Assembly (NCBI GenBank): GCA_951406725.2
Contig: OX597815.1
Span: 34,534,001 to 34,598,000 of the forward strand
Length of the DNA stretch: 64,000 bases
Direction of reading: 5' to 3'
Source: Octopus vulgaris
Lineage: Eukaryota
Shown: piece by piece, positions 25,081-58,740 of the stretch
How positions within the stretch are numbered: position 1 is the stretch's first letter
Layout of the letters: each line of letters begins with the position of its first letter
Made by a program: the position numbers and the translations under genes
The notes under the pieces: generated by a model
Databases searched by the model: none
The model's input: only the letters and a program-made list of their open reading frames with translations
Told to the model about the DNA's origin: nothing

Positions 25081-26198
25081 TAGTATAAATGTTACAAGTT
25101 TATTTTAAAACAAGGTACCCGTAAACTGGTCTGACGGCCGCCAGAATTTGAAGTTCCTGCTCGTAAAACAGTTCGGATTATAAGTGGTTCCGGATCATCA
25201 GTGTTTGAAAAGTAGGTGTTGTACCGGTACTTCACCTCACAATCATCCAGAGCGAATACATACCTATGACATTGTCAGATCTGCATCTCAAAAACTAGGG
25301 GTCTCTTTCAGGAGCTGTAATCTCTTCAACTCGAAGCACAACTTCTAGGTTGTTTTCAGAAATGGTCCATCGGATAGATTGACTGACAAGCAAGGTTTTC
25401 TCTCACTAAAACCATTTGTACTCTTATACGCAATAAACTTTTGGCTTCTTCTATCGTTATTATACGGTTTCTGTTCTCTGAAGTAGCAAGTTGTTTACTA
25501 TCTCATCTAGGACCACCTAAGAAGCTTTCACTTCTGTGTCACAAGAATCCTAAAAGAAACCATTATTTTTTCACATCATCATAGAAAGTATCCTAACAAG
25601 ATACTTTACATAAACGTTCAATCCAAGTAAGCAACTTTCTGGAACTCACACGGACCGCAGCCATCTACAGATATTCAAACTGAAAGTGATGCACTGAATG
25701 CCCGTGCTTTGGGTAAATAAATAAAGTTTATTGAAGTTTCTCTTTTAGTTGAATGTAATCGTTAGCGACTTCCAAAGAAAAGGGAAGATAATAAAAGAAA
25801 AGTTTAGAGCTCTTTACTCTTTTACTCTTTTACTTGTTTCAGTCATTTGACTGCGGCCATGCTGGAGCACCGCCTTTAATTGAGCAACTCGACCCTGGGA
25901 CTTATTCTTTTGTAAGCCCAGTACTTATTCTATCGGTCTCTTTTGCCGAACCGCTAAGTGACGGGAACATAAACACACCAGCATCGGTTGCCAAGCAATG
26001 CTAGGGGGACAAACACAGACACACAAGCACACACACACATATATATATATATATATACGATGGGCTTCTTTCAGTTTCCGTCTACCAAATCCACTCACAA
26101 GGCTTTGGTCGGCCCGAGGCTATAGTAGAAGACACTTGCCCAAGGTGCCACGCAGTGGGACTGAACCCAGATCCATGTGGTTGGTAAACAAGCTACTT

Positions 26199-28396
26199 TA
26201 TTTCAAAACATTTGCCATAAAGGCAGTACACAGATTAAGTTAGCTTTGCGGGCTGGACGAGGACATTAATGAAGTGAATGATAATGAAAGAAAGATGATA
26301 AGGATGGGAGAAGACAGAAAGCGCCCGCCGACTTTTGCTTCTCTAAAACATTGTTCTTTTTAAAAAGATAAACACAAACGAGGTATAAAACCTCTTACAA
26401 TTTTTCCCAATTTTTGGGCTTAGCAGTCCATTATTAATACAAAACGAGGTATTAATCCTCTTACAATTTTTCAATTTTTGGACTTAAGTCCATTACTAAT
26501 AATACATATCGTCCTCGAAATAGCTTGTGCCCGCGCCCTCCACCATCAACCACGCCTCCCTCAGAACGTAGTCAAGTTCCGAGTTCGCGTCGCCCGGGAC
26601 CAAGTTATAATCTTCGTTGAGCTCCTTTAGCCCTAGCGTCACGTCGAACGCCACGGCCTCCACAGCTACCTGCGGAGGCCATTCGGGGTCCTGTGTGAAG
26701 GCTAAAGGTGCTCCCTTGTAGTGCTCTTCCATCACTTTTTCAATTTCTCCTCCTCTATAGAAGAGGACCAACACATTTAGTTCTTTCGTTGGCGGCACAG
26801 TTTCCGCCAACGGTATTCCTTCTCTTGTCGGTGGCACAACCCCAACCGACGTAGTTCCGCGACATTCCGGTGCTACACTGACAGCCGGTAATGTCCCGTT
26901 TTTCTTCCTCTTTTTCTTTTTTTTTCCCTTTTCAACTGAGGGGGGTGCGTCTCCTCCGTGGCTGGAAGATTCGCCTTCCTCTCCTCATCCCTATTATCCT
27001 TTGGTGAGCACCCATTGTTGCTCACCTTCCTCTTTCGGCCTCTGTTTGAGGAGTCCTCTGCTTTCTCGGCCGTTATCGTTCCCTCTTCTAGAGGGGTTTT
27101 ACTTAACTGTTCCGGGATCCTATTTTGTTCCCGAGGACAGTTCTTCTTTATGTGGCCGGACTCCAAGCACCGATGACACTTAGGGGGGCGACCCTCAAGC
27201 ATCACCGGGTACCTGCACCCGGCCATTTTCAAAAAATCTGGAAGAACCAGATTGGCTGATTGTGTCCACAGAGTCAAAATTGCTTTCGACCCAACCCAAG
27301 CAGCCGCAGGAAGAACTTTTACATTGAGGAGCTTAGTTTCGCTGTCACCCAGACCCCGGCGGATAGTCTCCTCTATCCACTCGGGTTCTATGTCGGGTGG
27401 CAGTCCGCAGATCCAAGCTTTCATCAATTTCTTTTTTTGTACGTGGGCAGGAATAAGATTTCCTTACCCTCCAAGGGTTTGCTAGCAAATATGCAAGCCT
27501 CTTCAGGGGTGTCAAATAGCAACCACACCGTTGCATATTTGACACCCCTGAAATGAATTTAATTGTTGGCAAATACTCTTCCAACTCCTCCTCAATTGCC
27601 GTCTTTTCGAATAGGGCGATGGTGTCAAGTGCCTTGGAGTAGGTTCTCAACACCACCGTCCTATCTTCACGGTCTTTTAACCACTTTTTGGGTGGTATGA
27701 TTTCCCACTCCAAAATTTTGTTATTTTTCATTGCCATGTTTTTTTAAAAATATATTCAAATTAAACTCAAAAGCAGGAAGAAAAAAGTTCAAAAGTCTAA
27801 ATAAAATTTGATAGATTTTTGAAAAAACAAAAAGGAGAAAGTACAACAGAAGGGAAGAAATTAACGGAAAGTCGCAATAAAGAAAAAAAAACAAAGGGGG
27901 GGGGGGGTTAAATGAAGTTCAAAAGAAAGTTAATAAACAGAAAAAACACAGCAAAAATATTCTGGCCTTGCGGTACTCCAGGCCTGGGTTGAACCTGGAA
28001 CGCCGCAACTGCAACACAACCTCCACAAAAATGGGTCCGAAAGGTAATCCAATAGTGGCTTATTTTTATAATTTTCTTGCGAAGTAGTAAAACACAAGCA
28101 AACAAATTAATTTTTGCGGAGGGGCTACGCCTCCTCAAAAAGCACAATTCTCACTAAAGAGTGAGACCTTAGACACGACAACAGGCAGAGAAATATATCT
28201 GAAGTAAAGTGAAGTCTATTACCCGCAAAAAAATATTAATGCTAGATAACGTTAACTGCTAAATAACATTAAGCAAGCAATAAACTTCACTATGCTTCCA
28301 AAAATACAGAACGTCTTACCTGTCACCGAGTCAAAAGTTCAACATTTCACGTTCAAACACGTGACATTTGCAGGAGCAAAAAACAACACGTCTGTC
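26199..28396 (-). mobile_element. ORF1-only non-autonomous non-LTR retroelement (Tx1-like), inserted in a SINE A head
   Basis: 16-17-bp TSD (26182-26198 and 28397-28412); ~660-bp leader; one disrupted ORF with a CCHC knuckle; ~300-bp 3' UTR ending at AATAAA; no RT, endonuclease, LTR or TIR visible. Confidence 0.8.
26496..27737 (-). pseudogene. Gag-like/ORF1 nucleic-acid-binding protein (~410 aa once three frameshifts are repaired): probable RRM-like region plus CX2CX4HX4C knuckle
   Basis: Track ORFs 27345-27737, 26873-27427 (GRPPKCHRCLESGHIKKNCP) and 26496-26837 are joined by a bridging frame RGVKYATVWLLFDTPEEACIFASKPLEGKEILFLPTYKK. Layout resembles Tx1-clade ORF1. Confidence 0.75.
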
Positions 28397-30117
28397 TGGT
28401 AAGAAGCTACTTACTACACAGCCACTCCTGCGCCTATTTAAGAAGACTGGTTTGCAGTCATGTAATTTTAAGTTCAGTCCCATTTCACCCAATACTTTTA
28501 GCAAGTATCTTCCACTATAGCCCCAGGCCGGTCAATGTCTTGTGAGTGAATTTGGTGGACGGCGTTCATAAACACTGGAAAAAATCTGGATAAAATATTA
28601 CACTTCTTGCCAAATTTGTAGAAAAATTTTTCAATGACAGACCATAGATCACATGATTCTTGTGGTTGTGCGTTAATTGACTTACAAGAAAGGGAACAAT
28701 AAGAGGCTGGATGACTCAGTCTCTAATCCTTCTTTGAAGAAAACCTCTCTCTGCAGAAAACTATTCATCGCTATACTATCCATGCCGTAAGACCCATATC
28801 AACTTCTCTCAAGTACTGCTCACAAGTTCCTATAAGTTTAAAAAAAGTCACGTACAAACTTGTATTTAAATTAACAATTAGACGTCAGAGCAGATGACAT
28901 TCGCCTTATTAATGCTAGCAGTAGTTGTGGGATAATGGGACATTTCGGTTTTTTTTTTGGTTTTTTTTTTTTAGTAACGTTTCTCTTAAGTTTGAAACAG
29001 AAATCGTGCAATAACGAACATTTATCATTCAATACAATTGCTACATGTACATATTGGTATACACACACAGACACAGGCACACACACACTAACACACACAC
29101 ACACACAAAAATACACACCATCACACACAAACAGACGGTATATATGTATACATGGGTGCATGTTTGTATGTGCCAATGTACTCATTCAGACGTGTGTATG
29201 TATATACATACATATATATATATATATATATATATATATATATATATATATATATATATATATGTATGTATATATGTATATATGTGTATATATATATATG
29301 TGTGTGTGTGTGTGTGTGTGTGTGTGTATGCATGTATGTAAATATGTATATATATATGTGTGTGTGTGTGTGTGTGTGTGTGTGTGTATGTATGTATATA
29401 TGTATATATATATATATATATATATATAAGTATATTTTTTGTATGTACACATGAATACGGACATACATATTTACATGTGTTTGTGTGTGTGTGTGTGTAC
29501 GACTGTATATGTGTATGTGTATGTATGTATGTATGTAGGCAGAACAGAATCAATGATTTATAGAATGTAATTAGAAGTTCTTTAATAGTTATCAAAATAC
29601 CGCATTTGAAGAAACCACCTGACCAATCGCCTGCAATTGCAAGCAATCTTGGGAAACTTTTGGTCTGAATCAGCACGTTTCATCCAATTCTGAAGAATCG
29701 TGTTTTAATTTCTCTGATCTGTGACTTCTCTGCAAAAAAAGGCAAGCGCGAAACACCACAATCAATATTGTTACTGTTGATTATGTCTACTTCTGTCATC
29801 TCAGTTTTTCTACTTTTATTTAATCGTTTATTATTATTGTTTTCCTTTTCTTTATATGCGTGTGTGTATCAATGCGCATGAGCCTGTGTGCACGTGTTTT
29901 TAAGATGGAACGTCAAGAAAGATAAAAAAAAACAACAACACAGTGAAAACAAAATACCTTATGAAAAATACTAGTTTGATGTTTAAATAGAATAGAAATG
30001 GTTTTAAAGTTTTGGGTTAATATCATTCATCTAAAAGAGAAGAAAAGAGAACAAGGAATAAAAATAAAACGGTCAGAGAAAACACAAAGGGTTAAAAAAG
30101 TAATGTGTTGCCTAAAG

Positions 30118-57900: not shown

Positions 57901-58164
57901 GAGGTAGGTACGTACATATATGTATGTATATATGCATATGTTTTATTTATTTATTAATTTATATATATATATATAGATAGATAGATAGATAGATAGATAG
58001 ATAGATAGATAGATAGATAGATAGATAGATAGATAGATAGATAGATAGATAGATAGATAGATAAGAAGAAAATTGAGTTTTAACTGATAAAATTCAAGTT
58101 AACATACTATCAAAATTATCTGTTACCTACAATTGTTTCCATACTCAACTCATTCAATTACAAA

Positions 58165-58740
58165 TTACTCTTTTACCCTTTTACTTGTTTCAGTCATTTG
58201 ACTGCGGCCATGCTGGAGCACCGCCTTTAGTCGAGCAAATCGACCCCAGGACTTATTCTTTGTAAGCCTAGTACTTATTCTAATCAGTCTCTTTTTGCCG
58301 AACCGCTAAGTTACGGGGACGTAAACACACCAGCATCGGTTGTCAAGCGATGTTGGGGGGACAAACACAGACACACAAACATATACACACATATACATAC
58401 ATACATACATACATATATATATATATATATATATACATATATATATATATATATATATATATATCCGACGGGCTTCTTTCAGTTTCTGTCTACCAAATCC
58501 ATTCACAAGGCTTTGCTCGGCCCGAGGCTATAGTAGAAGACACTTGCCCAAGGTGCCACGCAGTGGGACAGAATCCGGAACCATGTGGTTGGTAAGCAAG
58601 CTACTTTATTTCATATAAATTTGCCATAAAGGCGTTACATAGAGGAGTTGCTGCGGGCTGGACAAAAACATTAATGAGATGAAGATGATAATGATGAACA
58701 AAAATGGGAGCTACTTACCACACAGCCACTCCTACGCCTG
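58165..58740 (-). mobile_element. SINE family A split by a 102-bp insertion in its head
   Basis: Body to 58606, head 58709-58740; TSD agctactt. Confidence 0.9.
58607..58708 (-). mobile_element. 5'-truncated 3' end of a relative of the 26199-28396 element
   Basis: Shares tatttca, atttgccataaaggc, tgcgggctggac, acattaatga and atggg with 26199-26310; TSD at 58599-58606 and 58709-58716. Confidence 0.85.

Follow-up and report, generated by a model that had tools for sequence, protein, structure and literature searches.

Site-specific insertion of an L1-group LINE and of ORF1-only non-autonomous families in the tRNA-like head of an octopus SINE

The described targets of site-specific long interspersed elements (LINEs) include ribosomal RNA, spliced-leader and tRNA genes, transposons, microsatellites and telomeres (PMC4640811; this and the other sources are cited for the portions of their text that were available). 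Within the Tx1 group, Tx1L targets Tx1D in Xenopus, and the crocodilian families Tx1-Mar, Tx1-8_Crp, Tx1-4_AMi and Tx1-9_AMi have transposon targets, among them a Mariner, long-terminal-repeat (LTR) elements and Harbingers; the non-autonomous SINEU shares the crocodilian Tx1 target (PMC4494074). Tx1 targeting of transposons is also described in PMC6719617. U2 snRNA genes are the target of Keno and Utopia, and the A box in tRNA genes is that of Dada (PMC4640811, PMC8869645), and HAL1 (half-L1) is a non-autonomous element that encodes ORF1p only (PMC5753468). For R1Bm, R2Ol and SART1Bm, annealing of read-through or 3'-untranslated-region (3' UTR) RNA to the nicked bottom strand is known to give a precise junction (PMC7265360, PMC6530143). 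Here we analyze a 64,000-nucleotide stretch of Octopus vulgaris DNA (GenBank assembly GCA_951406725.2, contig OX597815.1, forward-strand positions 34,534,001 to 34,598,000), hereafter the window, in which two copies of an abundant short interspersed element, SINE A, are interrupted at the same nucleotide of their tRNA-like head. We conclude, with a probability of about 0.93, that an L1-group LINE and several families encoding only open reading frame 1 (ORF1) insert site-specifically in the SINE A head through target-primed reverse transcription.

The octopus elements resemble Tx1L and the crocodilian Tx1 families in having an endonuclease of the apurinic/apyrimidinic (APE) type, a preferred site inside another transposable element, passengers that share the target, and tandems around the target-site duplication (TSD). 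Those families use DNA transposons or LTR elements, whereas the target here is a tRNA-like SINE head, hit at one nucleotide in 94% of the exact-match tails; unlike SINEU, the passengers code for ORF1. Precise insertion into a multicopy small-RNA sequence is shared with Keno, Utopia and Dada, of which Dada lies in the A-box region and Utopia occurs in tandems, but their targets are functional host genes, and Utopia has a restriction-like endonuclease while Dada is a DNA transposon. The passengers are, like HAL1, non-autonomous non-LTR elements that encode just ORF1, whereas HAL1 elements are mammalian L1 derivatives, and the available text of PMC5753468 mentions no target specificity for them. 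Annealing of RNA to the bottom strand, as in R1Bm, R2Ol and SART1Bm, would likewise explain the precise junction seen here. The RNA of those elements is target-sense, whereas the octopus tails carry an extra internal motif that is antisense to the target and covaries with it; none was seen in the available portions of PMC7265360 and PMC6530143. An octopus annotation of 2026 lists 13 recently active L1-Tx1 families with 421 insertions (PMC13282606), the main text of which, as far as available, does not mention a target for them. The available text of PMC8967140, PMC4758252, PMC3747384 and PMC8869645 holds nothing further on LINE targets. In the literature covered we found neither a LINE aimed at a SINE head nor a covarying antisense motif in a LINE tail, although Repbase Reports, subscription journals, the supplements and figure 3 of PMC4494074 and the library of PMC13282606 could hold one. 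Tx1 targeting of other transposons is already known; what appears to be new is the SINE head as a target and the covariation of the motif.

In the window, both interrupted SINE A copies lie on the minus strand and are split at GTGGCTGTGT(G/A)GT^AAGTAGCT. The two inserts have the orientation of the SINE, share a 3' junction at which GAAATA is followed directly by AAGTAGCTTG, and have homologous 3' ends (78% identity over 104 bp), while six other head-bearing copies, including one at 37074, are empty. A previous sequence-only reading of this DNA had reported the shared site and orientation, the homologous ends with their GAAATA junction and the six empty copies, and all of this holds. It had also assigned the long insert a length of 2198 bp and a TSD of 16-17 bp, which proved incorrect: the element runs from 26199 to 28403 (2205 bp, including CTTACCA at its 5' end), and its TSD is 9 bp (28404-28412 and 26190-26198). 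The TSDs of the two inserts thus measure 9 and 8 bp, and the argument for independence that had been drawn from a difference in TSD length falls; the stronger arguments given below replace it. The same reading took the long insert for a truncated LINE and overlooked that it is a non-autonomous element with ORF1 only. The features are as follows.

26199 to 28403, minus strand: full-length ORF1-only non-autonomous non-LTR element, 2205 bp, without endonuclease or reverse transcriptase (RT); ends set by 30 sister copies.
26496 to 27737, minus strand: ORF1, gag-like with a CCHC zinc knuckle, in three frames here; a 422-codon open frame in sister copy L129.
28397 to 28403, minus strand: CTTACCA, a SINE-like relic that is the element's own 5' end; the same in 29 of 30 sisters, with one variant.
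28404 to 28412, minus strand: 5' copy of the 9-bp TSD, AAGTAGCTT.
26190 to 26198, minus strand: 3' copy of the 9-bp TSD, target sequence.
28413 to 28434, minus strand: SINE A head on the upstream side of the long insert, containing an A-box-like motif.
25810 to 26198 (lower end approximate), minus strand: SINE A body (B-box-like motif, central part and tail), downstream of the long insert.
26237 to 26246, minus strand: internal 3' UTR motif of the long insert, AAGCTAACTT, antisense to the target apart from a single bulged base.
26213 to 26225, minus strand: terminal hairpin TGCC-5-GGCA of the long insert, present in all tail types seen.
58607 to 58708, minus strand: 102-bp 5'-truncated copy of another ORF1-only subfamily, whose longer sisters have ORF1 and no RT frame seen.
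58599 to 58606, minus strand: 3' copy of the 8-bp TSD of the short insert, AAGTAGCT, its last 2 bp also microhomology.
58709 to 58716, minus strand: 5' copy of the 8-bp TSD of the short insert.
58717 to 58738, minus strand: SINE A head upstream of the short insert.
58165 to 58606 (lower end approximate), minus strand: SINE A body downstream of the short insert.
58645 to 58652, minus strand: antisense motif of the short insert, mutated here (AGCAACTC).
37052 to 37140, plus strand: empty SINE A head, as an example; the others are at 6029, 8644, 11729 and 18824 on the plus strand and 46146 on the minus strand.

The 2.8-Gb genome was searched, and the exact-match counts are lower bounds. The terminal 26-mer of the long insert's subfamily had 217 matches, and 204 of these exact tails (94%) run directly into A-AAG(T/A)AGCT, with 0 in the reversed-pattern controls. 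The first 30 of the 217, chosen without regard to their flanks, are all followed by SINE A body. For relatives of the short insert, 30 of 40 matches were read: the SINE body comes next in 20 of them, and the site with another family member in 2. The filled-junction pattern had 725 exact matches, compared with 70,486 empty sites, and the 43 filled-junction loci that were read comprised 36 element tails, 5 empty SINE variants and 2 unclear cases. An older SINE variant (AAGAAGCTT), with 4,092 empty and 152 filled-type matches, is occupied at the same nucleotide by older tails; its first 60 filled-type matches included 43 element tails, 8 empty copies and 9 unclear ones. The 3' flanks are the SINE A site rather than random sequence, and the proposal of the sequence-only reading that a high-copy SINE serves as landing pad is borne out by both the 204 tails and the 30 flank-blind loci. 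Some observations pull the other way: six of the short insert's 30 relatives are near-identical duplicates with a target-like start only, two (L042 and L056) have unrelated 3' flanks, and 13 of the 217 tails lack the exact site, the one inspected (L161) being a mutated SINE. Targeting is real and genome-wide, and we regard it as almost certain that it is specific for the SINE A head. Contigs from four sequencing runs with four organism labels cover the element, although no listed piece spans the junction by 31 letters, and no RNA run is among the listed runs that hold it.

SINE A is a non-coding, interspersed element of about 410 bp and very high copy number (70,486 plus 4,092 exact head matches), with A- and B-box-like motifs visible. 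The head aligned best, though weakly, with this genome's tRNA-Lys(TTT) (score 57, reached by 0 of 200 shuffles), and the scores with other tRNAs, 46-55, were close to this value; neither ARAGORN nor Rfam called a tRNA in it. The alignment weakly supports a derivation of the head from a tRNA. The insertion site, GGT^AAG(T/A)AGCTT, is at the D-loop/A-box end of the tRNA-like head, and an insertion parts the A-box-like from the B-box-like motif, so that it should silence the SINE copy. Host SINE variants GCTAA, GCTTA and GTTTA are all occupied. A preference of the young family for one variant was considered and dropped (GCTAA in 15 of 30 versus 6 of 30), this variant being common among the empty sites listed, and avoidance of the A-variant SINE was ruled out, 43 of 60 pattern matches being element tails. 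Octopus SINEs named OK, OR1 and OR2 were reportedly described by Ohshima and Okada in 1994; OR2 is also cited in the available text of PMC4758252. The genome also holds many dispersed tRNA-Lys(TTT)-like copies and clusters of tRNA genes at L226, L221-L222 and L231, among them seven of Cys/Ser type in 3 kb and Arg and Thr pairs.

Both inserts in the window are members of non-autonomous families that encode ORF1 only. In the long insert there is a single gag-like ORF1, which has a zinc knuckle and is spread over three frames, and no RT. We read 30 of 40 scored sister matches; after AAGTAGCTT, 29 of them start with CTTACCA and one with CTTACTA, with no base in between in 24 and one base in 6. The SINE variant on the 3' side varies among sisters while the 5' relic is constant (27 of 28 paired loci resolved), and CTTACCA is for this reason taken as the element's 5' end, being the same whatever SINE variant adjoins the 3' end. 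Other subfamilies carry other 5' relics (CTAACC, TTTACC and CTCACC). The sister units measure 2.0-2.3 kb, with both ends defined and TSDs at many loci, and have ORF1 frames of about 400-425 codons and no RT frame seen; there are several subfamilies, 65-95% alike. As in HAL1, ORF1 alone is encoded and a unit with defined 5' and 3' ends has been amplified, but there is no descent from mammalian L1, as the homologue of this ORF1 is the zinc-knuckle ORF1 that the local LINE described below encodes. The two ORF1 proteins are 28% identical over 196 residues (E 6e-23), a value too low for a recent deletion of that partner. An Rfam search of the 5' ends of ORF1-only and autonomous elements for a ribozyme returned nothing relevant. 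A 62-bp tandem duplication in the 3' UTR (26376-26501 in the window) marks the youngest ORF1-only subfamily. One tiny internally deleted element of 107 bp (L099) lies in the site with both ends and a TSD, a possible seed of a passenger resembling miniature inverted-repeat transposable elements.

A longer element with APE and RT and a related tail, which the sequence-only reading had anticipated, occupies the same site. By sampling from the junction, we found, at L141, L142 and L154, a 5.4-kb element that has the SINE head on its upstream side and the SINE body on its downstream side, and a further full-length copy has the SINE head upstream at L269. Its ORF1 contains zf-CCHC (E 2e-5), and its ORF2 contains Exo_endo_phos, RVT_1 and zf-RVT; the best solved relatives of the endonuclease are L1 endonucleases (E 3e-12). 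The autonomous tail motif had 103 exact matches, the first 21 of which are all followed by the site, 20 with SINE body and one with another family member, and related autonomous subfamilies, 78-83% alike, are also at the site. The autonomous and ORF1-only elements have the terminal hairpin and the GAAATA end in common, and their tails share the last ~35 nt (0 of 1000 shuffles as good, by a slight margin). On the other side of the balance, every ORF2 frame that was read is interrupted.

In its architecture, with the APE endonuclease N-terminal in ORF2, an RT, a C-terminal zinc finger, a separate ORF1, 5' truncations, variable TSDs and no LTRs, the autonomous element corresponds to the L1 group. 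ORF1 proteins of the Tx1 clade have a zinc knuckle rather than the coiled-coil type of vertebrate L1, and the autonomous ORF1 has such a knuckle (zf-CCHC). The nearest Atlas clusters to ORF1, a lead only, are CCHC and ZCCHC3-type RNA-binding domains (0.90-0.92). Another Tx1 feature, an APE endonuclease with a target-sequence preference (PMC4494074, PMC4640811), is also present. In the RT tree the autonomous RT groups with two Argonauta proteins (99/97), within a clade (100/99) that holds cuttlefish and unnamed proteins and lies apart from the plant L1-type rows. Named Tx1 reference proteins of the Tx1L, Keno, Kibi, Koshi or Dewa type were not among the protein-search matches, and the tree therefore cannot assign the clade. 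On architecture and habit, this L1-group LINE is likely to belong to the Tx1 clade.

The median identity is 99.1% for insert tails, 90.9% for host SINE bodies and 89.1% for empty SINE bodies; inserts span 49 to 5460 bp at the site, and matched duplications in truncated copies measure 0, 7, 8, 9, 9, 10, 14, 15 and 16 bp. The 5' truncation and TSD length are hence variable, as the sequence-only reading had supposed. A locus-specific T is present in both TSD copies at L072/L018, and a GTTT variant in both at L116. Different subfamilies form head-to-tail arrays parted by the site, with at least five junctions in L130 and three in L126, and three autonomous units are in tandem on C9; because the TSD recreates the target site, subfamilies can stack in this way. 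Amplification of one filled SINE A unit (head, insert and body) by hitchhiking or 3' transduction would account for the constant 3' junction and nearly constant 5' junction of young copies (24 of 30 identical at the 5' side), and six loci are indeed plain segmental duplicates. However, the host SINEs have diverged like empty ones and far more than the inserts, which excludes such a composite lineage, and the many unrelated insert lengths, subfamilies and TSDs, the tandem arrays, and the presence of autonomous elements, ORF1-only elements and one chimera with a second SINE (SINE B) at the same nucleotide leave it with virtually no probability. The claim of independent insertions is upheld by this identity comparison. 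The covariation of SINE variants between head and body offered too few informative sites as a test of independence. A segmental repeat with a ~16-kb period (L037, L045-L048 and L050, at C20 57.86-57.97 Mb and on C8) carries one truncated insertion, with the downstream SINE body missing.

It might also be argued that the true target is a tRNA, as a host small-RNA gene, and that the SINE head is a look-alike bystander: site-specific non-LTR elements are known to insert in tRNA genes and in further multicopy RNA genes (PMC4640811), and the site falls in the D-loop region of the tRNA-like head. No tRNA gene is present, though, in the flanks that were read when searching from the element, and the 35 distinct tRNA sequences listed, which represent some but not all isotypes, all lack AAG(T/A)AGCTT (30 of 34 tRNA loci among the matches listed entered the comparison). 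Moreover, the 5' relic and the antisense motif match SINE and not tRNA sequence. We consider a tRNA target very improbable. Ancestry from a tRNA-targeting element may nevertheless apply to the family that inserts in SINE A.

Both tail types, ORF1-only and autonomous, carry AGCT(A/T)C(TT), which is the target sequence in reverse complement and lies 40-45 nt before the end in the former and ~80 nt in the latter. In an anchored count of ORF1-only inserts, the variable motif base is A in all 102 that occupy T-variant SINEs and T in 18 of the 25 that occupy A-variant SINEs (p 1.5e-16). Among distinct ORF1-only tails the A:T ratio is 48:0 in the T-variant and 6:17 in the A-variant, and for autonomous-type tails the corresponding ratios are 24:0 and 0:4 (p 4.9e-5). 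On a tree of 74 tails with the motif base masked, the state changes five times in the best tree, with at least three changes forced by strongly supported branches. When folded with 20 nt of read-through, the motif pairs with the target in three of three tails. The terminal hairpin shows paired changes of its own between subfamilies (GCC/GGC versus GGCT/AGCC in the tails of L273, L288, L317 and L271).

These results suggest that the motif has a role in pairing with read-through RNA or target DNA, a view that we moderately favor. A more specific version is that target choice is partly written in the LINE RNA, with a 7-9 nt antisense 3' UTR motif that swaps partners with the target duplex during priming and has been altered repeatedly so as to follow a single-base change in the SINE; this we regard as tentative and on balance unlikely. 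A fair number of observations count against such roles. The folding z-scores are -2.2, 0.3 and 0.0, with just the autonomous tail beating shuffles, and the tail tree has few columns. Of the 25 ORF1-only inserts in A-variant SINEs, 7 have a motif base that does not match, and in the two copies of the window the motif is bulged or mutated. A third tail class, at no fewer than 12 loci (L279, L282, L289, L290, L295, L297, L301, L306, L309, L310, L320 and L057), uses the same site without the antisense motif near its end. In addition, element age is confounded with the age of the SINE variant, older elements being necessarily in older SINEs. The mismatched inserts and the motif-free class fit an alternative in which the endonuclease alone sets targeting and the motif is a structural hairpin of the master transcript or has drifted along with the SINE variant through age, without a part in the choice of site, and Tx1 target choice has been attributed mainly to the endonuclease (PMC4494074). 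This alternative, which agrees on targeting and differs only on the motif, does not readily explain that, in two tail types with different upstream sequence, the change falls at the paired base and is to the complementary one, or that the motif base changed more than once on the tail tree. We give it a substantial chance, somewhat short of even.

The site, the orientation, the independence of the insertions, the TSDs, the 5' truncations, the tandem re-insertion and the autonomous partner are shown by the data, and LINE biology supplies a plausible course for site-specific insertion through target-primed reverse transcription. The endonuclease would nick the bottom strand opposite GGT^AAG, a position that A microhomology leaves uncertain by as much as 2 nt, and the top strand would be cut mostly 8-10 (0-16) nt downstream; ORF2p would mobilize the ORF1-only families in trans. 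The junction is invariant and lacks a variable poly(A), as would be expected if the RNA reads past GAAATA into the SINE; this read-through stretch may anneal to the primer strand. Lying 40-80 nt upstream, the antisense motif may pair with the read-through stretch or with the freed top strand. The bottom-strand primer and the internal motif are identical in sequence, so that the primer could displace the motif from the read-through stretch; the hairpin between the two would then be opened by the DNA primer, leaving the motif free for the top strand. In this partner swap, read-through RNA would pair with the bottom-strand primer and the internal motif with the top strand.

SINE B, the second abundant SINE (head GGCGGCGAGCTGG; 37507-37737 in the window, plus strand), shares its 3' tail with the 3' UTR of the autonomous LINE (score 65 against L142 8930-8992, shuffles at most 34), so that a related LINE probably mobilizes it. 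SINE B lacks the antisense motif, and use of the SINE A site by ordinary SINE B was ruled out, with 0 matches of the SINE B tail followed by the site. In one case (L146 7583-7866, the same as L118), a chimera of SINE B and the terminal hairpin of a targeted family occupies the SINE A site and has a duplication of 14 bp. Four of the five SINE B copies in the window have one head and a repeated body with a period of ~184 (23521-23936, 47583-47992, 52908-53300 and, on the minus strand, 42262), and one outer duplication flanks the pair at 23521. This arrangement suggests a dimeric subfamily or self-insertion.

Resting on hundreds of cases and not on a few, our results add the head of a SINE to host RNA genes, satellites and DNA transposons as known targets of site-specific LINEs. 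The LINE here parasitizes another parasite and occupies ~1% of one SINE variant and a few percent of the older one. As this one genome contains SINE variants, and likewise element subfamilies, that differ in age, the shares of RNA and endonuclease in specificity can be tested, and a natural one-base target pair with matching RNA motifs bears on how target specificity changes. If targeting is in part written in the RNA, a chase between LINE and SINE would be recorded in base pairs, and the octopus genome would hold an inserter that is site-specific, has dispensable landing sites in the tens of thousands, and might be given another preference by a change in its RNA.

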